Virus record (IMG/VR): IMGVR_UViG_2703718871_000021
Span: 1 to 39,908 of that record
Strand: one strand, 5' to 3'
Source of the DNA: a virus
Lineage: Duplodnaviria; Heunggongvirae; Uroviricota; Caudoviricetes
DNA: 39,908 bases
Shown one piece after another: positions 470 through 9,215 of the stretch. The notes under the pieces are model-generated. The model searched no databases. It was given only the letters and a program-made list of their open reading frames with translations, and was not told where the DNA came from. Position 1 is the first letter of the stretch, and every line of letters starts with the position of its first letter. The position numbers and the translations under genes were made by a program.

Positions 470-1873
470 TTGAGAATGCCGCGCACTGTAACACATAATC
501 CGGATAGCCCCAATAATGACGATGTTTTAGCCGCATCTGAAAAATGGGACGCCTGTAAACCCCCCTATACCAGCGCACACATGAAAATCTGTGTTGCTGC
601 CGCTAAAATCATCCTCGCTGCTTCCGGCGTGGCTCGCCGTTCCAAATACGAAAAAGAGAACTATCTCCGTATCGATTTCAGCAAAGCCGGTAAGGTTACA
701 TTTTATGCCGAGTTTCCAAAAAAGATGGGCCTCAAAGGTAAAAAGCTCGGCGAGTGGCCGGAGCTCGCTATCCAGCTGGCGCGCGAAAAAGCGCTAGGTA
801 TGGCTGACGGTGGCCTGCGGGCAGAGTCCGTACATGCAGCGCTGGAAATGTACCGGGATGACCTCAAAGCCAAAGTCGCCCGGCAGAAGCTGAGCCCGGA
901 CAGTTTCACAACCTACGGGGTGCGTATCGACCGGATTAAAGCCACGTTCGGCGAGCGCGAGGTGTTCAGCGACGTAACATACAATCGGCTGGTGGAAGTG
1001 CTGGACGAGTGGATCGCCACTCGCTCGAACAATAACGCCCTGGAGTTGTTTGCCGAGCTCCGTCGGTTCTGGAAGTTCTGCGCACCTACTCTTTGCAATG
1101 GCCGCAATGTTGCCGCCAGTCTGCCAGATGATTATGTTTCCTCCCGCGTACAGAAACCCACCCCCACACGGCTTTTTACCGATATTGAATCAATCGCCCG
1201 ACTCTGGCTCAATGTTGCTGCCTGCACCTCTGTACACCAGAAGAATGCTGTTCGCTTCATGATCATCACTGGTGTTCGTCCGATTAATGTCCATAACCTG
1301 CGCTGGGACTACGTTCACGAGGAGGCTGGTGAAATTGTTTATCCGGAAGGGGTTATCGGCATGCGAGGGGCTATGAAAACACAAAAGGCTTTCCGCCTGC
1401 CGATAACGCCTGAGATCCGGCGGATTATCGACGAGCAGAAAGCCTGGCGTGATTCAGTTCCTGAGTGCAACAGGGATTATGTATTTTTGCAGCCACGTGA
1501 TCCAATGCAGCCATTTTCAAAACGATCACTGGATAAGCTGGTGAAAACATACAGCCCGGACGGGGCTGTAAAAGGAATAAAACATGATGGGACTGTTAAA
1601 GGGAAAGACGGTGCATTTAATACGATGTGCCGTAAATTCCTTAAGAGCAATGTTATTGCCTTGATGAAGGAAAGAGGCTATTCCCGCTCAGACCGAAGGG
1701 AAATCAGCCTCCTTTGCCTTCACCACTCCAGCAAGTCAGATGACCCGATGGCAGAACATTACGACTTTTCTGATGAGATTTTACAGGAAGAGATTGCGTT
1801 GAAGCGCGAAGCTTTCGAGGCTCACGAGCGGAGCATACTTGCGCAGGTGGCATTGCTACGGCGGCGAGGTTAA
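470..1873 (+). CDS. phage tyrosine integrase (site-specific recombinase)
   Basis: 467-aa ORF with AGGA-type RBS before ATG 470; first gene inside the element, convergent with an AlpA-like excisionase gene; size and N-terminal arm-binding-like region fit P4-type integrases; catalytic R-H-R-Y residues not verified by eye, start codon uncertain. Confidence 0.65.
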   Translation: MRMPRTVTHNPDSPNNDDVLAASEKWDACKPPYTSAHMKICVAAAKIILAASGVARRSKYEKENYLRIDFSKAGKVTFYAEFPKKMGLKGKKLGEWPELAIQLAREKALGMADGGLRAESVHAALEMYRDDLKAKVARQKLSPDSFTTYGVRIDRIKATFGEREVFSDVTYNRLVEVLDEWIATRSNNNALELFAELRRFWKFCAPTLCNGRNVAASLPDDYVSSRVQKPTPTRLFTDIESIARLWLNVAACTSVHQKNAVRFMIITGVRPINVHNLRWDYVHEEAGEIVYPEGVIGMRGAMKTQKAFRLPITPEIRRIIDEQKAWRDSVPECNRDYVFLQPRDPMQPFSKRSLDKLVKTYSPDGAVKGIKHDGTVKGKDGAFNTMCRKFLKSNVIALMKERGYSRSDRREISLLCLHHSSKSDDPMAEHYDFSDEILQEEIALKREAFEAHERSILAQVALLRRRG

Positions 1874-2070
1874 TACTGGCTGCGACATTTTTGAATAAAA
1901 GCGTCGACATTTCGGCGCTCATAACGAACTACTTTTGCACTGAAACGAATTGGTGCCAAGATAGCCCGATGACGATGCTTAATATTCCACTCACATAGCG
2001 TTTTCTGTGTAATACCTAACTTTTGGCATACTTCATCCGGGGTGAGTAAATCGTCGGGTTTCTCGCTCAT
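1870..2070 (-). CDS. AlpA/Xis-family excisionase or transcriptional regulator (helix-turn-helix)
   Basis: 66-aa ORF; LLTPDEVCQKLGITQKTLCEWNIK resembles the AlpA-type HTH; sits beside the integrase as excisionases usually do. Confidence 0.65.
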   Translation of the reverse strand: MSEKPDDLLTPDEVCQKLGITQKTLCEWNIKHRHRAILAPIRFSAKVVRYERRNVDAFIQKCRSQY

Positions 2071-3461
2071 GCTATACCTCTCTTTTTCATGGCATCGAGC
2101 AGGATGTCCTGCACTGTTCGTTTTGAGTTGCGCCGCTCCATCACCATTTCGTCCATAGTGTCGGCAGCAATAATGTGGTGAATAAATACCGGACGATTGT
2201 GTCCGGCCTGTATCTGTCTGGTTGGGCCGATACGTTCAATAATTTGCTGATACTGCTCCAGGTCCCACCAATGTGAGAAAAATACCAGTATGTTTCCGCC
2301 GTCCTGCATGTTCAGACCGTGGCCCGCGCTGGCTGGGTGTGCAAAGAGAACAGGAATCTTTCCGGAATTCCAGTCACGTAGTGTCTGTGGATCCTGGTCG
2401 AGGTTACGACCGCGAGGAAATGCTTTAAGCAAGCGTTCAAGATCGTGTTTCCAGTGATAAGCAACCAGCACAGGTGCGCCAGCTGCTTCGGTCAGTATGC
2501 TGTCCAGCGCCTGTAGTTTGGTGTCATGCAGTTCTGACCAACTTCCGGTGTCATCTGTGTATACTGCGCCGCTGGCGATTTGCAGACACTTCAGTGTCTT
2601 TGCCGCGGCGTTCGGTGCTTCGATGCCTTCGCCATTCAGCTCGAGGAACATTTCCTTTTCCATTTCACGATACTGCTGACGGGCCTTCGGCGGCATATCC
2701 ACGCGGATTACGTTATGGATGGGGTCTTTGATATCGAACCAGTCGGTCGCATCCAGCGAGAGGGTCACATCGGCTAACGCTCGCTGTATTTCACCCTGTG
2801 AGTGAGCAAAAGGCTCCAGTTTGGTCCAGCTCTGTCCCGGAAACTGTATCGATTTGAACCAGCGTGAGGTAAACGCGCCGTAAGTGCGCCCGAGACGTTG
2901 CCCCAGGTCCACAAACCACGATTGTCCCCACAAATCTACCAGGCCGTTCGGTGCTGGCGTACCGGTGAGATTTATCCAGCGCCGGACATACTTGTGCGCC
3001 ACTTTGCCCAGCGCCGCCGCGCGCTTACCACCACCTCGCAGCCGGAAGGATTTTAGCCGGGTGCTTTCATCTGGAATGACAGTACCGAACGGCCATCGTT
3101 CTCCCAATTCCTCAACCAGCCAGACAAGGTTATCGTAGTTGATGGTGAACACGCTCGCGTTGTTGTTCGCCAACGCTGCAGAGCGCGCTTTGGCATTACC
3201 AACAATTGGTTGTACCTCGATATTGCGCAAATGCCCCCACTTCAGTGCTTCATCCGGCCATGTGCTGGCAGCCACGCGCAGCGGCGCGAGAACCAGCGCA
3301 GGTTGTGTTTCTGCACCCGCCATGAAGAGGTCTTCCAGCGTAGTGAGTGTCGCTACGGTTTTACCCATTCCCATACCCGCCCAGATGTTGCCGCGCAGAA
3401 TGTTAGTTTGGTGATTGATTATGAGGTTTTGATAAATTCTGGGGTGGAATATGCTATTCAT
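2067..3461 (-). CDS. SNF2/DEAD-like superfamily-2 helicase (phage replication/recombination)
   Basis: 464-aa ORF; Walker A GMGMGKT near N-terminus, DExx-type box VIPDEST, C-terminal helicase-like region; start overlaps the excisionase stop (operon). Confidence 0.8.
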   Translation of the reverse strand: MNSIFHPRIYQNLIINHQTNILRGNIWAGMGMGKTVATLTTLEDLFMAGAETQPALVLAPLRVAASTWPDEALKWGHLRNIEVQPIVGNAKARSAALANNNASVFTINYDNLVWLVEELGERWPFGTVIPDESTRLKSFRLRGGGKRAAALGKVAHKYVRRWINLTGTPAPNGLVDLWGQSWFVDLGQRLGRTYGAFTSRWFKSIQFPGQSWTKLEPFAHSQGEIQRALADVTLSLDATDWFDIKDPIHNVIRVDMPPKARQQYREMEKEMFLELNGEGIEAPNAAAKTLKCLQIASGAVYTDDTGSWSELHDTKLQALDSILTEAAGAPVLVAYHWKHDLERLLKAFPRGRNLDQDPQTLRDWNSGKIPVLFAHPASAGHGLNMQDGGNILVFFSHWWDLEQYQQIIERIGPTRQIQAGHNRPVFIHHIIAADTMDEMVMERRNSKRTVQDILLDAMKKRGIA

Positions 3462-3522: not shown

Positions 3523-4320
3523 ATGCCCCTGGCGAAAATATTTACAAAGCAAGTTTCTTTATTAACTATGTTTTCAGCGTTAGCTTATGCGATGGCATAT
3601 TATTTTCAGAAAGGTGTTGCATCGTATTATGGCTATCCAGACCTTTTTATTAAAATAGACTTAAATACGCTATTGTATTCGGCTGTGTGGCTTTTGTTTT
3701 TTAGTTTTTTATTTCTCGGCGCCTTATATGCGGCGTTGATGTTTGATTTGAAAGGAAAATATTATGTTCCATTTATTGTATTTATAGTTGTTATGCTAAT
3801 GGCTAATATTTGTATAATAGGATTTCATTGGCCTTTTGGTTATTTCTCCGAAACTTCTGTGATGAGTGTTCAGGATATTTTATTATTTGCTATGCTTTTG
3901 TTGAATTATCACAATGTGGTGTCCATGCCAATCCATAGTAAGAGACACGAACATCATATGGAGAGCATTAGAAAATTTGGGAGGCTTGCAGAGTATAAGA
4001 ACGTATTTTATTATATCGATTTAAAAATCCTAAAGTCAGCTTTTCCTTTAGGGGTGATAACGTTGTTGATATTGAGCTATACATTCGGGAAGGTTACTGC
4101 ATTTAAAAATAACGAATATTATATGGTAGATGGTAGTAATACTAAAGTGTTGCTCAATTCATTTGGTAGTGGTTTTGTTGTTGGTGATTGTGAGTCAAAT
4201 AGCGCAAAATTTGAATTTGTTAATGATTTAAAAGGGATGAGATTCACAATCATGTCCTCTAAAAAGGAAATAGCTAAATTAAAAGAGTGTTTCGAAATAC
4301 GTGTTAAAAATACGGATTAA
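3523..4320 (+). CDS. hypothetical multi-pass membrane protein (AT-rich cargo gene)
   Basis: 265-aa ORF on the strand opposite to the surrounding early operon; visibly AT-rich; several long hydrophobic segments (LLYSAVWLLFFSFLFLGALYAAL, FIVFIVVMLMANICIIGF); GAGG-type RBS before ATG. Confidence 0.55.
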   Translation: MPLAKIFTKQVSLLTMFSALAYAMAYYFQKGVASYYGYPDLFIKIDLNTLLYSAVWLLFFSFLFLGALYAALMFDLKGKYYVPFIVFIVVMLMANICIIGFHWPFGYFSETSVMSVQDILLFAMLLLNYHNVVSMPIHSKRHEHHMESIRKFGRLAEYKNVFYYIDLKILKSAFPLGVITLLILSYTFGKVTAFKNNEYYMVDGSNTKVLLNSFGSGFVVGDCESNSAKFEFVNDLKGMRFTIMSSKKEIAKLKECFEIRVKNTD

Positions 4321-4332
4321 AGCATAAGTCTT

Positions 4333-4620
4333 TTATCCTTTATTGCGGCTTAAAATAATGGCCTCCAGATTTTTGCTATCCAGCACCACTACGGTAAAGC
4401 CCAGCGCGCGCAACCGTCCGTGTTCGCGCAACTGGTCAGGCCGTGGTGGCTTGCCGGGGGATTTACATTCAACGAAAATGATACGACCGCCGGGTAGCAG
4501 AACAATGCGATCTGGTACCGAGCGGCGACCGGGGGATACGAACTTAAAGGCAACCCCGCCAGCCTTTTTTACTTCAGCGACGAGGTGCTTTTCGATTAGG
4601 TTTTCACGTTCATAGGCCAT
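4333..4620 (-). CDS. VRR-NUC domain nuclease
   Basis: 95-aa ORF; EVKKAGG...FVECKSPGKPP...QLREH...GF pattern typical of VRR-NUC (PD-(D/E)xK-type) phage proteins; commonly paired with SNF2 helicases. Confidence 0.75.
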   Translation of the reverse strand: MAYERENLIEKHLVAEVKKAGGVAFKFVSPGRRSVPDRIVLLPGGRIIFVECKSPGKPPRPDQLREHGRLRALGFTVVVLDSKNLEAIILSRNKG

Positions 4621-4814
4621 TAGCTTTCGCCTTCCTGCTTTTTGCGTTTCTTCATGCAGATAGCGCAGTTCTCAGGATGGTCATGCCATTCATCAATCCT
4701 GATACCTGTGAACATCCATTTTCCGCATAGTGATATGGCTTCCCCCGAATTAAAGAAATGTGCTTTTTTTGACAGAGCGGGGAACCCCCAACCCTTATTA
4801 TCGATATTAGACAT
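4620..4814 (-). CDS. hypothetical small protein
   Basis: 64-aa ORF with strong RBS AAGGAGGTG before the ATG; stop overlaps VRR-NUC start; Cys/His-containing C-terminal part (HDHPENCAICMKK). Confidence 0.5.
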   Translation of the reverse strand: MSNIDNKGWGFPALSKKAHFFNSGEAISLCGKWMFTGIRIDEWHDHPENCAICMKKRKKQEGES

Positions 4815-4850
4815 CGTCCACCTCCTTACGCTTTTCGCGCATGTTCTGCA

Positions 4851-4985
4851 TCAGACAAAAATCAAACCGACGTTCGCTTTGGCCCAGACCTGCATCGCCC
4901 GGTCGTACCCGCCGGACTGTTCAAGGTGCAAAGCCTCCCGCACAGTCCGGTAATAAAGCGGACTGTCTCGGTATTTAAATGACAT
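4851..4985 (-). CDS. hypothetical small protein (44 aa)
   Basis: Short ORF found by hand (MSFKYRDSPLYYRTVREALHLEQSGGYDRAMQVWAKANVGLIFV), immediately upstream of and co-oriented with the 64-aa gene; below the 60-aa ORF-track cutoff. Confidence 0.3.
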   Translation of the reverse strand: MSFKYRDSPLYYRTVREALHLEQSGGYDRAMQVWAKANVGLIFV

Positions 4986-5000
4986 AGGGTTTTTATTCCC

Positions 5001-5027
5001 AAATAAAAAACCCCGCGATGCAGGGTT
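5001..5027 (-). terminator. putative rho-independent terminator downstream of the TIR-like gene
   Basis: On the minus strand CCCTGC-atc-GCGGGG hairpin followed by TTTTTTATTT. Confidence 0.45.
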
Positions 5028-5048: not shown

Positions 5049-5810
5049 TTACGAGGAAGCGTTAGCTATTTGAGCTTGTGTAAATTCGAAACCAGAATTT
5101 TGTAACCGTTGCACTAGACGAGGAACTGTTTCACGTACATGGTCGTTGAAATTCAGATACAAAATCCCGTTAGCATCAGAAGGCTGTTCTAGGTGCTGTT
5201 TCTGAAGGATTGCTACATTGCTGCGCCCTAAGGACGAAAGAAGCATACCCATCTCGAGTACAACGTTCTGTCTTGCGCGGGGTTGGATTTCTGCTTCACC
5301 GGCGCGCTTTGAGTATCCCATATCATCAGGTGTCAAAAGAACAATCCCGAAACGGGTAGCAGTTTGTCCTTGCCCAATTTCACGTTCAAGCTCTTCAATA
5401 ATGGTGAGTCCAGTCCCTCCCGTATTCTGCAAAATGAAATGGTCTGGTAATCCAAGTTTATGAAGGATTAGCTCAAGTTGCTCCTTTGCAGTATGGTCAT
5501 GGCCGTGAACAATGAATATCTTTTTGGGGAGCTCAGATGGCTGTTCTACGGCTAGTGGTGTTGCCGTGGGCGGCGTTCCTAAATGGGTCATTATTGCAGT
5601 TTCAACATTGGGACGTTCTTGAGGGTTACCTTGAAACTGAATGGTCCGGGTGGTGTAAAGGTTAACAATTACGCCATTCGTTAAACGATAGCAGTCACAA
5701 GTCTCACGCTGTTCGTGGGAAAAATTGGTGAACCCACACTCCCTCAAAAAGTCAGGAAAAGATTCTCTCGGGTATGGATAGGTGATCGGCATTTCAGTTA
5801 GTTCCTGCAT
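5049..5810 (-). CDS. TIR-like-domain protein with unknown N-terminal domain (candidate defence or counter-defence effector)
   Basis: 253-aa ORF; residues ~97-230 (KKIFIVHGHDHTAKEQLELIL...GLTIIEELE...FGIVLLTPDDMGY...NVVLEMGML) fit my recollection of the bacterial TIR-like family (PF10137/COG4271 type); N-terminal ~95 aa unassignable; co-oriented with DNA polymerase gene. Confidence 0.6.
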   Translation of the reverse strand: MQELTEMPITYPYPRESFPDFLRECGFTNFSHEQRETCDCYRLTNGVIVNLYTTRTIQFQGNPQERPNVETAIMTHLGTPPTATPLAVEQPSELPKKIFIVHGHDHTAKEQLELILHKLGLPDHFILQNTGGTGLTIIEELEREIGQGQTATRFGIVLLTPDDMGYSKRAGEAEIQPRARQNVVLEMGMLLSSLGRSNVAILQKQHLEQPSDANGILYLNFNDHVRETVPRLVQRLQNSGFEFTQAQIANASS

Positions 5811-5874
5811 AAGTATTGTTCCTTTAATTTACTCGAATTCAGCATGTCGCCATAGCTCGATAAGGTGAGTTATA

Positions 5875-7938
5875 TCAATCTTTTTTGTAGTGGTACGCCT
5901 CAAAACCGCCAGCGTTCAGTGGGATATCGGGCGCCCATTCGGGGTCAGTGGAGAGAAGCGCGGAAAGCGCTTTATCGTTGAAATCTTCTGTGTCAGGTGC
6001 TTCGGTGATCACCTCGTCGTGTACCGTCAGCACAATGCTGTAACCGGCATCTTCGATAAGCGGCATGTTTCCGGCCAGAATGTCGCGGGCGGCCGCCTGG
6101 GTGATGTTCTCCACCAGCTTTCCGCCGTAGGTTTTGAGTCGTTGCCATTTACTCGAATAAGAGTTAACCCCCATGTAGGTGATATTCCCTTTTTCGATAA
6201 CCGGAGACGGGTGGCATACAGCGCGTCCGGATGGTAGCTGTATGCGCAGCCACGCGCCATCGCGGCGGATTTTAAGATAACCGCAATACAATGTTTTTTG
6301 CGGTGTGGCGATTGCAGTGCGGACGGTGCGCTCCAGTTCGTACCAGAAATCACAGGTCGCGGGATGCGCCCGGCGCCAGAGACGTTTAAGTGAGTCGCAG
6401 GCGATAAATACCCGTTCAGAAAGCCCGTAGGTTGACTTGCGTTTAACCGATTCGTCGTACCAGCTTTTCGCCTCGCGGATAACATCGCGGGGAATGTTTG
6501 GTAGTGCGGCGTTCGCCAGCTCGTCGAGATCGAGACCGTAAACCAGTGCAAAAGTGATGAAGGCCGACACACCACCACCATAACCCAGACCGAGTTCCAT
6601 GACTTTACCGATCTGACGCATGTGTTTATCAACATCATCTGGTGCAATATCGAAAGCTTTTGCATACGCCAGTTTATATAAGTCCGGACCCGTTCCGGCG
6701 TCGTACTCTCTGAATGCATTCAGTTTCCATTCTTCTCCCGCCAGCCATGCCAGCATACGGCCTTCAATGTTCGACAAGTCACTTACCACCAGCTTTTTGC
6801 CTGTTGGCGCGATAATGCAGCCACGTAACGCTGAACTGGTTAGTTCCATGATATTGTCAAACAGCAGGTCTGCACATCCGGCTTTCAGTGCTTCGATGCC
6901 TTCGTCTATTTGTTCCTGTTTTAGTGAAGGGCGGGGAAGGTTCTGGGGCTGGAATAGCCGTCCGGCCCAACGACCGGTACGTGACGCCCCGCAGAACTGT
7001 AGCGTACCGCGTAAGCGCCCGTCGTGGCTTACGCCTTTCATCAGTGCCTTGTATTTACTGGTGCTGGTAGTACTGGCCTGCAGGCGGATAGCCAGCAGTT
7101 CTTTCACGGCAGATGGTAAATCGGGGTCGGCAATACGACGTTCCAGAGTACTGCGTTGCATGTCTGGTAGCTCCACACCGTAGGATTCAACAATGTGCTT
7201 AATCAACGCGTCTCGTTGTGTGGCTGCCTGCACTTTGCCATCAGTCATTTCCTGTGTACGCTTTGCCAGGCGCTTTTGTTCCTGGTCTACCGCGTCGATC
7301 GCAGCGCGTGCGAGTTCCACGTCCATGCAGACGCCCCGGTCATTGATCTGCTGATCACGATGCCAGAGCGCCAGTTCTGTCCCCTGATAATTCCACTTCG
7401 GCAGACGTTTATAGACTTCGCGCATTGCCTCGATATCCAGTCCGGCGTAAGCAACAAAGCGCCGCCATTCTTCCGGGTGGGTTTTGCTGGTGGCCCGGCG
7501 CAGTTTGCTGTTTTTCGGGCGTGGCTTACAGAACAGCTGGATCAGCGCTTTACCTTCTTTGTCCTTCGCTTTGTCTTGCGGGACGCCTAGTACTTCGCAG
7601 AGTTCCCCCAGAGACCCCGGGAGACCGTGCGCCAGCGCCTGCACCATTGTGTCGCGCCAACGTTCGACTGGCGGTGCCAGGCGCGGCATTGCATAACGCA
7701 GAACGGTGCGGTCGAAGTGAGAGTTATGGAAATAAAGCAGGGTTTCAGGGTCTGCGATTGCTTCGTATAAGCCGTGTGGAATACCACCACCGGCAGTGAT
7801 ATCCCATACGTTTACTGGCCCGTCGTTGATAGCCCATGCGAAAAGCATCACTTCAACGCCTTCGGCATACGCATGGGTACCGTTCGTAATAGGGATTTCG
7901 CAATAGGTTTCCAGGTCGCCCCATAGTATATTGGACAT
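5875..7938 (-). CDS. family A DNA polymerase with N-terminal 3'-5' exonuclease-like region
   Basis: 687-aa ORF; PolA motifs visible: motif A-like [16 protein letters not shown], motif B-like [16 protein letters not shown], motif C-like [10 protein letters not shown]. Confidence 0.9.
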
Positions 7939-7984: not shown

Positions 7985-8614
7985 ATGCATATGATCCAAT
8001 ACTTGATTGACCATACAGAGCATCTGGAGAAAATAGCTGGATATATTTTTTCATGTTTGATTGTTATGGGAGTCTGGATAAGAAAGATCATTTTTAATTA
8101 TAAGTATAAAGAGCCTAAATATGTCAAGAAGTTAATTTTATATTTAGTTAAGTATGAACGTTATCTGGATGAGGAGGATAAGAGTGCCATAGAAAAAAGA
8201 ATAAATGATAAAATTATTCGTGATGCGCTGAAATTGCAATCCTCTTATAACCGAAGAGATGTTATTTACATTTGCAATAGATTAGAAAAAAGACAGTATA
8301 TAAATCAGTTGATTAAGCTTCAGAATTATATAGAGAAAGATAACGGAGTGTTTTTTATTAATGTTGATTTTTCAGGTTTTTTATTTATTATTAGTCGTCT
8401 GTTTTCCTTTCTGTGTTTTGTGCTGTTTACCCTTTTTTCTATTATCTGCATTATTTCCATAGGGCAAAATGAAGGCCTTTTAAATTATCTTGTGTATATG
8501 GTTATGATAATAGTTTTAGAGACTGTTGGTTTTTGGATGTATGATACTTTCCCGTCTAAGAAAAAGATCTGTGAACTAAATAAAGAATTGAGAAAGATTA
8601 AGATTCCTGAGTGA
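7985..8614 (+). CDS. hypothetical membrane protein (AT-rich cargo gene)
   Basis: 209-aa ORF on opposite strand to flanking replication genes; strongly AT-rich; Lys/Tyr/Ile-rich with hydrophobic segments (FLFIISRLFSFLCFVLFTLFSIICIISIG, LVYMVMIIVLETVGFW). Confidence 0.55.
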   Translation: MHMIQYLIDHTEHLEKIAGYIFSCLIVMGVWIRKIIFNYKYKEPKYVKKLILYLVKYERYLDEEDKSAIEKRINDKIIRDALKLQSSYNRRDVIYICNRLEKRQYINQLIKLQNYIEKDNGVFFINVDFSGFLFIISRLFSFLCFVLFTLFSIICIISIGQNEGLLNYLVYMVMIIVLETVGFWMYDTFPSKKKICELNKELRKIKIPE

Positions 8615-8666
8615 TTATACGCCTAATCAGTAGCCCGGTGTTTAACCGGGCGTCTATGAAGTAGGG

Positions 8667-9215
8667 TTAAATTAGTGCTTCAGCATCAGCACCTTCGCTG
8701 ATATCGTCGAAATCGTCAGCGCTTGCCACTCCGCCGCCAGCGAATGCATCGCCGTCTCGCAGGAACTGGACTCCGCCGAGTGAGGCATTAATGCGTTTAC
8801 CGAAATTATTGTCTTGTGCCCAGATATCGATAACGGCGTTTACATAGCACCCTGCATAGGGACGTCCGTCAGCCTGAATAAGTGGCGAACGATCGCGATC
8901 AAGAACAGCTGGGCGCGCTTTGTTAGCAGCATTCAGGAAGAAATTACCGGGGAAGCCTTCATACTCTGCTTTTTCATCACCATCATGCAGGCACAGATTG
9001 AGTTTTTTCTCCAGCTGGTTATAAATGGGCTCCCACTTCTCTCCCCATTTTTCCTTCGCTACCTGCTTCATAGCTTTACGGATTTCTTCCAGTTGTGGGT
9101 GTTTGGGTGACATTAAAAATACTGCGGAGAAACGTGGATCGCCTTCGCCGTTTACAGTTTTAGCTTCAAACAGAGACGGGAAGGCCAGACGAACATTGTT
9201 CAGCTTCAGTTTCAT
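8667..9215 (-). CDS. DUF2815-like phage protein (putative ssDNA-binding protein)
   Basis: 182-aa ORF starting MKLKLNNVRLAFPSLFEAK, a pattern I associate with DUF2815; acidic C-terminal tail (DDFDDISEGADAEALI) as in SSB-type proteins; adjacent to DUF2800-like and PolA genes. Confidence 0.65.
   Translation of the reverse strand: MKLKLNNVRLAFPSLFEAKTVNGEGDPRFSAVFLMSPKHPQLEEIRKAMKQVAKEKWGEKWEPIYNQLEKKLNLCLHDGDEKAEYEGFPGNFFLNAANKARPAVLDRDRSPLIQADGRPYAGCYVNAVIDIWAQDNNFGKRINASLGGVQFLRDGDAFAGGGVASADDFDDISEGADAEALI

Follow-up and report, generated by a model that had tools for sequence, protein, structure and literature searches.

Here, we describe a gene for a TIR-domain protein that lies within the replication operon of a temperate phage. 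The DNA analyzed (the window; 39,908 nucleotides in all) is IMG/VR virus record IMGVR_UViG_2703718871_000021, and the gene is an open reading frame (ORF) at positions 5049 to 5810 on the minus strand. It has an ATG start and encodes 253 amino acids followed by a stop codon, laid out as a predicted TBP-like N-terminal domain, a linker, and a TIR domain of Pfam family PF10137. The ORF was first pointed out in a preliminary description of this DNA; it is a real gene and not a chance reading frame, because it is under purifying selection (ratio of nonsynonymous to synonymous substitution rates [dN/dS], 0.003 to 0.32 by domain). The motifs quoted in that description are all present, at residues 96 to 111 (KKIFIVHGHDHTAKEQ), 134 to 144 (GLTIIEELERE), 154 to 166 (FGIVLLTPDDMGY), and 182 to 188 (NVVLEMG). 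The RefSeq entry for the product is WP_001157067.1 (“TIR domain-containing protein”), and three temperate-phage genome records hold the protein at 98.8% identity, labeled “TIR-like domain-containing protein”; the TIR call itself is not new, as both RefSeq and GenBank annotate the domain already. The prophage with the TIR gene is integrated beside yfhL in an Escherichia coli chromosome of the IAI1 type. As a general class, the gene is likely to be a single-gene conflict effector with an active TIR domain.

The two domains of the protein

The TIR domain makes up the 157 C-terminal residues (residues 97 to 253; positions 5052 to 5522, minus strand), of which residues 97 to 222 match the Pfam model PF10137, CAP12-PCTIR_TIR (E = 2.9e-31; 108.4 bits vs a gathering cut-off of 24.7; profile positions 1 to 118 of 119). 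The preliminary description had named this family, and both the profile search and the fold bear it out; in a Foldseek search with the full structural model, the top match in the Protein Data Bank (PDB) was TIR-STING 9lmq (probability, 1.0; E = 5e-4; TIR/flavodoxin-like fold). PF10137 is matched by all 71 homologues in our family alignment. The core motif was aligned with HMMER to TIR-STING (7un8 and 9lmq) and PycTIR (8jsj), and among PDB sequences the similarity of the domain to Cap12 and PycTIR is weak (E about 3e-4, over half the domain).

The predicted catalytic glutamate is E186 (codon 5253 to 5255, minus strand), the same residue that was singled out earlier and now checked at its codon; it belongs to the motif R180-x-N182-V-V-L-E186-x-G, is invariant in the 71 sequences, and aligns with E84 of SfSTING. 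D212 (codon 5175 to 5177, minus strand) lies in an invariant P-S-D motif, aligns with SfSTING D110, and is predicted to complete the site of a partner protomer in trans. Together, R180, N182, E186, and D212 align to SfSTING R78, N80, E84, and D110 (a correspondence that uses an inferred PDB chain numbering offset of 8), and all four are invariant or at least 90% conserved. In SfSTING, R78, N80, and E84 form the NAD+ site, with E84 as the catalytic residue, and filament formation switches on the TIR-STING NADase because D110 completes the active site of the partner protomer (PMC9402430). All characterized PF10137 members (Cap12 and PycTIR) are described in databases as NADases. Judged by its residues, the TIR domain of the window protein is a probable NAD+ glycohydrolase.

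Residues 79 to 96 (positions 5523 to 5576, minus strand) form a hypervariable linker that is rich in Pro, Ala, Thr, and Ser and predicted to be disordered (predicted local distance difference test [pLDDT] below 50); its mean column entropy is 3.0 bits, vs 0.73 for the TIR domain. The N-terminal domain lies before it (residues 8 to 78; positions 5577 to 5789, minus strand). AlphaFold, run on the full protein and on residues 1 to 82, gave a confident beta-alpha-beta4-alpha model for this domain (pLDDT about 90), whose best structural matches are members of the TBP-like lobe family, namely, the N-domain of RNase HIII (PF11858) and the NTD/NRD of RnlA/LsoA (PF15935). We assign the fold to that family with good confidence. 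When the N-domain profile was searched against all PDB sequences, the LsoA NRD came first (E = 0.041) and Aquifex RNase HIII second (E = 0.066), both marginal. The RnlA_toxin model PF15935 reached E = 0.098 with the 253-residue protein and matched 12 of the 71 family members (best, 8.5e-4; all below the gathering score), and the RNase HIII N-domain model (DUF3378/PF11858) gave sub-threshold matches to 4 of the 71. Homology to the RNase HIII and RnlA lobes is plausible.

The sole strongly conserved part of the N-domain is its beta4-turn-beta5 hairpin (residues G46 to G61; positions 5628 to 5675, minus strand), in which the conservation table picks out G46, N50, [W/L]51, Y52, T54, G55, T56, Q58, Q60, and G61. 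Y52, T54, T56, and G61 align to Y45, T47, S49, and G54 of Aquifex RNase HIII (Y45-K-T47-G-S49-LLIQ-G54), and Tyr43, Ser45, Ser47, and Gly52 of Ta-RNase H3 are spaced in just the same way (Y-x-[ST]-x-[ST]-x4-G). In the crystal of Thermovibrio RNase H3 with an RNA/DNA hybrid, Tyr43 makes a stacking contact with a deoxyribose, a DNA phosphate is held by Ser45 and Ser47, and the Gly52 amide reads the RNA 2'-OH; the isolated N-domain of that enzyme binds RNA/DNA hybrid only (PMC4132731). By analogy, the N-domain of the window protein may bind nucleic acid.

The preliminary description had treated the first part of the protein as a separate but private domain that could not be assigned. The two-domain architecture stands; the private or orphan status does not, since the PADLOC model PDLC05003 covers residues 10 to 253 and the TBP-like lobe is family-wide. 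A metal-binding Cys domain was also ruled out, as the N-domain cysteines (C25, C38, and C40) are not conserved across the family. Foldseek with the N-domain against BFVD returned uncharacterized proteins only (E above 0.02), and a word-indexed homologue search with the N-domain profile returned eight short fragments and nothing more. An exhaustive HMMER scan with the same profile found 907 cluster representatives, mostly fragments or TIR fusions. One 617-residue protein (P0196) matches the profile over its first 75 residues (E = 2e-14) and has a cytidine/MafB19-type deaminase at residues 342 to 520; the TBP-like lobe is therefore reused with another nucleic-acid or nucleotide enzyme.

The two domains evolve under very different constraint. 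Compared with a phage allele at a dS of about 1.6, which is near saturation (L031), the TIR domain keeps 99% amino acid identity (dN/dS, 0.003), vs 46% for the N-domain (dN/dS, about 0.29); across ten comparisons, dN/dS was 0.003 to 0.05 for the TIR domain and 0.13 to 0.32 for the N-domain. Since the catalytic residues are kept and identity is 99% at such a dS, the TIR domain is better read as an enzyme than as a binder. E. coli has two alleles of the gene, whose DNA can no longer be aligned over the part that encodes the N-domain. Three IMG/VR contigs with a 97 to 98% identical polymerase hold the divergent allele (72% identical), and alleles have therefore been exchanged between phages.

A cargo slot in the phage replication operon

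The TIR gene is co-oriented with the leftward, repressor-controlled early replication operon. Its upstream neighbor is a family A DNA polymerase gene (positions 5875 to 7938, minus strand), which marks the left edge of the cargo slot, and its downstream neighbor is a degraded ANR-family regulator gene (positions 4807 to 4985, minus strand), which marks the right edge, with a 64-residue ORF and a VRR-NUC gene beyond; this placement, and the accessory, non-core character of the gene, agree with the preliminary description. DNA alignment with relatives showed that the cassette is flanked exactly by the stop codon of the polymerase gene and the start codon of ANR. It consists of a 64-nt leader (positions 5811 to 5874, minus strand, from the polymerase stop to the TIR start) with an AAGGA ribosome-binding site, the ORF, and an intrinsic-terminator-like hairpin with a T-tail (positions 4999 to 5027, minus strand; stem-loop 5027 to 5009; 8-bp stem). 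The hairpin had been noted before; it belongs to the cassette. In the TIR-less relative L002, the polymerase stop and ANR start codons are 5 nt apart, with no TIR gene and no hairpin, and in L004 an analogous hairpin lies 3' of a divergent TIR allele. GC content is about 46% in the cassette vs about 55% in the polymerase gene.

The contents of the slot behind the polymerase differ among relatives. One holds the 72%-identical TIR allele; in others, the slot is taken by a GHKL (HATPase_c) ATPase gene on the opposite strand with a weak DrmA-like PADLOC match (L003; positions 1882 to 2910, plus strand), by genes for a 169-residue protein and a YfbU-family protein (L178; positions 1502 to 2568, minus strand), by a gene for a 67-residue protein (L179, the F11 prophage; positions 2723 to 2926, minus strand), or by a gene for an Ant antirepressor (L180; positions 2013 to 2774, minus strand). 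Among 5,426 complete E. coli genomes, 47 have the TIR gene (37 with this allele and 10 with the divergent one), which is about 30% of the 159 genomes with this polymerase. The gene order pol-TIR-ANR-VRR-NUC-SNF2 is kept in 38 IMG/VR contigs, including phages whose polymerase is only 73 to 77% identical. A purely recent moron insertion was considered and had to be qualified accordingly: the slot is kept at 73 to 77% polymerase identity, which indicates long-resident cargo with allele swapping.

Several hallmarks of a moron or hot-spot were found, namely, presence or absence at a fixed junction, alternative cargo, and an own terminator present only with the cassette. A further one, an own promoter that would allow expression from a repressed prophage, was not seen by the consensus scan: no sigma-70 consensus promoter lies in the leader or anywhere between positions 4300 and 6100 on either strand, by a simple scan that weak or non-canonical sites would escape.

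Other parts of the region also vary. In the window, the ANR gene has an internal deletion of several tens of nucleotides relative to L002 and L004, which causes a frameshift and leaves a 44-residue ORF; RefSeq marks the gene as “frameshifted.” The 64-residue ORF between ANR and VRR-NUC (positions 4620 to 4814, minus strand) encodes several Cys and His residues and had no family match in PADLOC or Pfam; its site is a second variable position, occupied in relatives by a DUF4406 or an S-adenosylmethionine (SAM) methyltransferase gene. Two AT-rich ORFs (positions 3523 to 4320 and 7985 to 8614, both plus strand; 28 to 33% GC vs about 55% in the flanks) are wedged among the replication genes on the opposite strand. 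Their hydrophobic products (265 and 209 residues) resemble multi-pass membrane proteins in sequence and had no Pfam or PADLOC match; the two ORFs look like morons. The slot of the first (positions 3523 to 4320) holds DUF6338 and hypothetical protein genes, or a Dcm methyltransferase gene, in relatives. A Dcm-type cytosine methyltransferase gene was found once each in L179 and L002, and the F11 prophage (L179) also has an Nmad5-family nucleotide-modification gene.

Homologues and their genomic settings

The window protein belongs end to end to a cataloged family. The PADLOC PDC-S35 model PDLC05003 matches residues 10 to 253 over profile positions 3 to 245 of 245 (E = 7.1e-109), and PHROG 16442 (phrog_16442; function unknown) matches at E = 1e-108. 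Three of the five PDC-S35 hidden Markov models (HMMs) match the TIR half only, and PDC-S35 therefore lumps several N-terminal architectures together. More than 2,700 relatives came up in a database search, and the best 120 of them are mostly about 250 residues long and 50 to 60% identical over 84 to 94% of the query, from Vibrio, Halomonas, Serratia, Yersinia, Acidobacteria, and many metagenomes. When one genome per species was scanned, relatives turned up in at least 558 species from more than ten phyla. In a set of IMG/VR loci (L063 to L097), the same TIR subfamily is joined to at least six unrelated N-domains of 110 to 150 residues. The TIR parts in this set are 36 to 45% identical over residues about 90 to 250, and the N-domains include a “MYYHIR...” type and several helical types. 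Conflict systems typically exchange recognition modules on an unchanging effector in this way, and effectors on an unchanging recognition module as well.

Gene contexts were surveyed at 76 non-identical loci from species-representative genomes, with our own ORF calling and clustering. The commonest neighbors are genes of type I restriction-modification (R-M) systems, with HsdS (PF01420) upstream in 15 of the 76 and HsdR (HSDR_N, SWI2_SNF2, and T1R_D3) downstream in 12; HsdR is 0 to 16 nt away in the 8 loci where it is the next gene. This embedding reproduces the “guilt-by-embedding” basis of PDC-S35 and is true of the homologues, not of the window copy. Loci placed between hsdS and hsdR include L125, L127, L131, L135, L136, L141, L145, and L146 (TIR gene at about 8001 to 8700). 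In four alphaproteobacterial loci (L131, L136, L141, and L145), the stretch from hsdS to the TIR gene also encodes an unannotated 195-residue protein with no Pfam match, perhaps a partner restricted to that lineage. Other homologues lie on conjugative or integrative and conjugative element (ICE)-like elements, adjoin an integron-type integrase accompanied by Mrr and PemK, or share an island with DUF4062, a reverse transcriptase, and ParDE. Homologues 45 to 55% identical to the window protein occur with no phage genes at all, in type I R-M operons, on chromosomal islands, and on conjugative elements. Across the 76 loci, no partner gene is common to all contexts, and for that reason we regard the TIR protein as a single-gene unit.

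Two bacterial groups have settings of their own. Bartonella is unusually rich in the family (L119, L128, L132, L147 to L149, L151, L153, L156, L157, and L171), its copies adjoining a TMP-TENI-like gene and arrays of small Xre-type helix-turn-helix (HTH) genes. Collinsella (L158 to L168) has a shorter 219-residue form flanked by an SPFH/zinc-ribbon protein and a Fic-domain protein, together with an overlapping 493-residue protein with no Pfam match, possibly a multi-gene arrangement peculiar to that lineage.

An RNase HI gene (PF00075; about 50% identical to E. coli RnhA, with DEDD intact) lies directly downstream of some TIR homologues. A 1-nt overlap of stop and start codons (TGATG or TAATG), by which the two genes are translationally coupled, is seen on a Verrucomicrobium conjugative element and in seven genomes of Chloroflexota whose TIR proteins fall in a single clade; in Nannocystis, the two genes are 9 nt apart, next to an IS66 element. 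The RNase HI genes are at 8732 to 9256 in L099/L017, at about 8690 to 9200 in L116 to L118, L120, L123, L124, and L129, and at 8661 to 9131 in L122. For a single-copy family of housekeeping type, three linkages by chance would be very unlikely, given a rough expectation of about 0.03 among the 76 loci (not a formal test). In a protein with comparable lobes, RnlA, the TBP-like NRD is reported to bind RNase HI, on which RnlA depends, and it also binds RnlB (PMC5308261); the TBP1 domain of RnlA is needed for substrate binding (PMC8266594).

Proposed function and comparison with known systems

The preliminary description had suggested a prophage-borne exclusion or abortive-infection effector, and with the PDC-S35 match and the homologues in R-M operons and in defense and mobile islands, this is still the most plausible role. 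More specifically, we propose a standalone abortive-infection or exclusion TIR NADase that is clustered on RNA/DNA hybrids or via RNase HI, a proposal that we consider evenly balanced between right and wrong; for the trigger taken separately (a hybrid or RNase HI), we would lean somewhat to the doubtful side. At rest, the TIR domains would lack activity as monomers or in a wrong packing, since D212 of a partner protomer is required to complete the active site. On infection by another phage, or during foreign DNA replication, the lobes would line up next to one another on a nucleic acid duplex, for which an RNA/DNA hybrid (a primer, R-loop, or transcription-replication intermediate) is the likeliest candidate; alternatively, the lobes would read the state of RNase HI. 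Once docked, the proteins would bring their TIR domains together as an active dimer or filament, much as clustering activates the NADases SpbK and TIR-STING; NAD+ would be hydrolyzed, and the infected cell would no longer support phage growth. Cellular RNase HI, operon-encoded in some lineages, would serve as a safety by holding the trigger low in uninfected cells. In the window, the gene is optional cargo of a temperate phage, in the variable slot just after the DNA polymerase. In its boldest form, offered tentatively since we think it more doubtful than the trigger as just stated, the protein would sense RNA/DNA hybrids by itself, with no guide, or would stand guard over RNase HI. The hybrids that an invader makes in priming, transcription, or reverse transcription would act as templates for side-by-side docking of the lobes, the TIR domains would assemble as an NADase or act on the hybrid itself, and RNase HI would erase the signal.

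Several points weigh against the proposed hybrid- or RNase HI-triggered NADase. The N-domain evolves 15 to 90 times faster than the TIR domain, which is more easily explained by a surface that senses proteins or evades inhibitors than by generic binding of hybrids, and the TIR half of the AlphaFold 2 model is of moderate confidence (pLDDT, 50 to 80). An adjoining RNase HI gene is present at only 9 of about 76 loci, which count as three independent events. The lasting position behind the polymerase could mean that the function is tied to replication. Because no promoter was detected and the gene is co-oriented with the early replication operon, it may be expressed only in the phage's own lytic cycle, in which case the phage's own primers may be potential triggers and defense of the lysogen would not apply. 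The 145 candidates of the PDC list, which guilt-by-embedding picked out within operons for BREX, DISARM, or type I R-M, are untested according to the list's authors (Payne et al. 2024 preprint). In the searchable (and incomplete) literature, no paper was found for PDC-S35, the accession, or the phage names, and a search on TIR with RNase H or R-loops gave short prokaryotic Argonaute (pAgo) papers only; a review on jumbo phages offered nothing specific.

The same NADase effector could have a different sensor, with the N-domain recognizing a phage protein, or serving as the target of phage inhibitors, in the manner of SpbK. This is unlikely in our estimate, although the fast divergence of the N-domain beside a frozen TIR domain suits it, as does the coexistence in E. 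coli of two alleles that are swapped between phages with nearly identical polymerases; there is also the precedent that SpbK senses the SPbeta portal and that the RnlA NRD binds the proteins RNase HI and RnlB. Against a protein ligand, the only conserved residues of the N-domain are those of the hairpin that contacts the hybrid in RNase H3, a motif unchanged across many phyla and hard to square with one phage-specific ligand, and the RNase HI operon linkage and the deaminase fusion both point to nucleic acids. A second possibility, which we rate as quite unlikely, is that the gene is expressed with the replication genes and serves the lytic program of its carrier phage, not defense of the lysogen; host takeover, counter-defense, exclusion of co-infecting phages, and processing of replication intermediates were considered as roles. 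About 70% of closely related E. coli prophages do without the gene and the slot has unrelated cargo, the homologues in R-M operons, islands, and conjugative elements have no phage genes around them, the cassette has a terminator of its own, as a moron would, and known PF10137 enzymes destroy the NAD+ that phages need. These observations stand against an early-operon orientation 64 nt behind the polymerase with no promoter-like site, a gene order conserved in the 38 viral contigs down to 73% polymerase identity, the recovery as complete genomes of phages that carry the gene, and the suggestive placement of a possible hybrid-binding domain beside replication genes.

It is slightly less likely still that the TIR domain acts on the nucleic acid to which the lobe attaches it, and not by NAD+ depletion, for example as a nuclease or 2',3'-cyclic nucleoside monophosphate (cNMP) synthetase, as an N-glycosidase, or as an NAD-dependent ADP-ribosyltransferase on RNA/DNA hybrids or primers. 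Nucleic acid cleavage has been reported for plant TIR domains, and in each setting characterized or observed, the TBP-like lobe brings a nucleic-acid enzyme to its substrate (RNase HIII, the HEPN RNase RnlA, and the deaminase fusion). The catalytic Glu of TIR-like folds is also found in nucleotide N-glycosidases, MilB among them (PMC9402430, extended data). Action on nucleic acid is opposed by the invariance of the equivalents of the SfSTING NAD+ pocket and of the trans-acting Asp, and by the database description of the characterized PF10137 members, Cap12 and PycTIR, as NADases. Least likely of all, and in our view highly improbable, is a catalytically silent sponge or decoy for host immune nucleotides, which the preliminary description had raised beside an effector role. 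Phages are known to encode nucleotide sponges, and this gene is phage-borne; all mapped catalytic residues are kept and invariant, purifying selection on the TIR domain is extreme, host R-M operons contain homologues, and the structure searches run gave no likeness to known sponge folds, all of which disfavor such a role.

If true, the proposed NADase would be a very small TIR enzyme with a defined class of trigger (RNA/DNA hybrids or the state of RNase HI), and it would join three separate matters: the TBP-like lobes of RnlA, its puzzling dependence on RNase HI, and the activation of TIR domains by clustering. On the boldest reading, RNA/DNA hybrids would be a general pattern of “non-self replication” in bacterial immunity, read by a protein of 253 residues. 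If the proposal holds, a compact hybrid-responsive NADase might also be of use as a biosensor. For phage biology, the locus documents a hot-spot for cargo among the replication genes of temperate enterobacterial phages that belong to a widespread family. The latest systematic survey of TIR-based immunity in bacteria did not take up standalone TIR proteins, and the family has so far been a catalog candidate. Within the searchable literature, which is incomplete, we did not find the TBP-like identity of the N-domain, the conserved hybrid-contact hairpin, the recurrent RNase HI operon, the asymmetry of selection between the domains, or the hot-spot in a phage replication operon.

Among known systems, PDC-S35/PHROG 16442 is the same family from end to end; it is a catalog entry, for which we found no domain analysis, trigger, or mechanism. 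Cap12 (TIR-STING) and PycTIR share with the window protein the Pfam TIR family and the motifs R-x-N-V-V-x-E-x-G and P-[ST]-D, a likeness from which an oligomerization-dependent NADase would be expected here too. Unlike them, the window protein has no STING, SAVED, or cyclic-nucleotide-binding domain, and its sensor would be the TBP-like lobe. The effector of CBASS/Pycsar type envisaged in the preliminary description therefore keeps its family, PF10137, and loses its system. No cyclase lies beside the window gene, whose neighbors are the DNA polymerase and ANR genes, and no cyclase-like recurrent cluster was found among the neighbors at the 76 loci; the protein has no cyclic-nucleotide sensor. 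The NCBIfam Cap12 equivalogs score 30 to 35 bits (35 at best for Cap12) vs a cut-off of 450 and cover the TIR core only, and the PADLOC effector and PycTIR models match residues about 132 to 238 only. Thoeris (ThsB) was rejected as well, with no ThsA or other partner effector conserved across the 76 loci; a 2025 Thoeris survey explicitly left out standalone TIRs.

SpbK of the Bacillus subtilis element ICEBs1 is likewise a single polypeptide of a mobile element, with an N-terminal recognition part followed by a TIR domain. Its NADase is switched on when a multivalent ligand, the phage portal protein, clusters the TIR domains (PMC12847820). SpbK differs from the window protein in its TIR family, its N-terminal region, and that ligand, and the searches run gave no sequence relationship between the two. 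In SPARTA (short pAgo/TIR-APAZ), a TIR NADase is activated by formation of an RNA/DNA duplex and then by oligomerization. SPARTA needs an Argonaute, a guide RNA, and a sequence-specific target DNA, whereas a lobe of 70 residues in the window protein would read hybrid geometry regardless of sequence, and there is no homology between the two outside the TIR fold. The closest counterparts of the N-domain are the N-domain of RNase HIII and the NTD/NRD of RnlA/LsoA, with sequence similarity below curated thresholds and with fold, topology, and the hairpin of Tyr and Ser/Thr residues in common; RnlA adds an anti-phage context and a link to RNase HI. In those proteins, the lobe is attached to an RNase H or a HEPN nuclease, and in the window protein, it is attached to a TIR domain.

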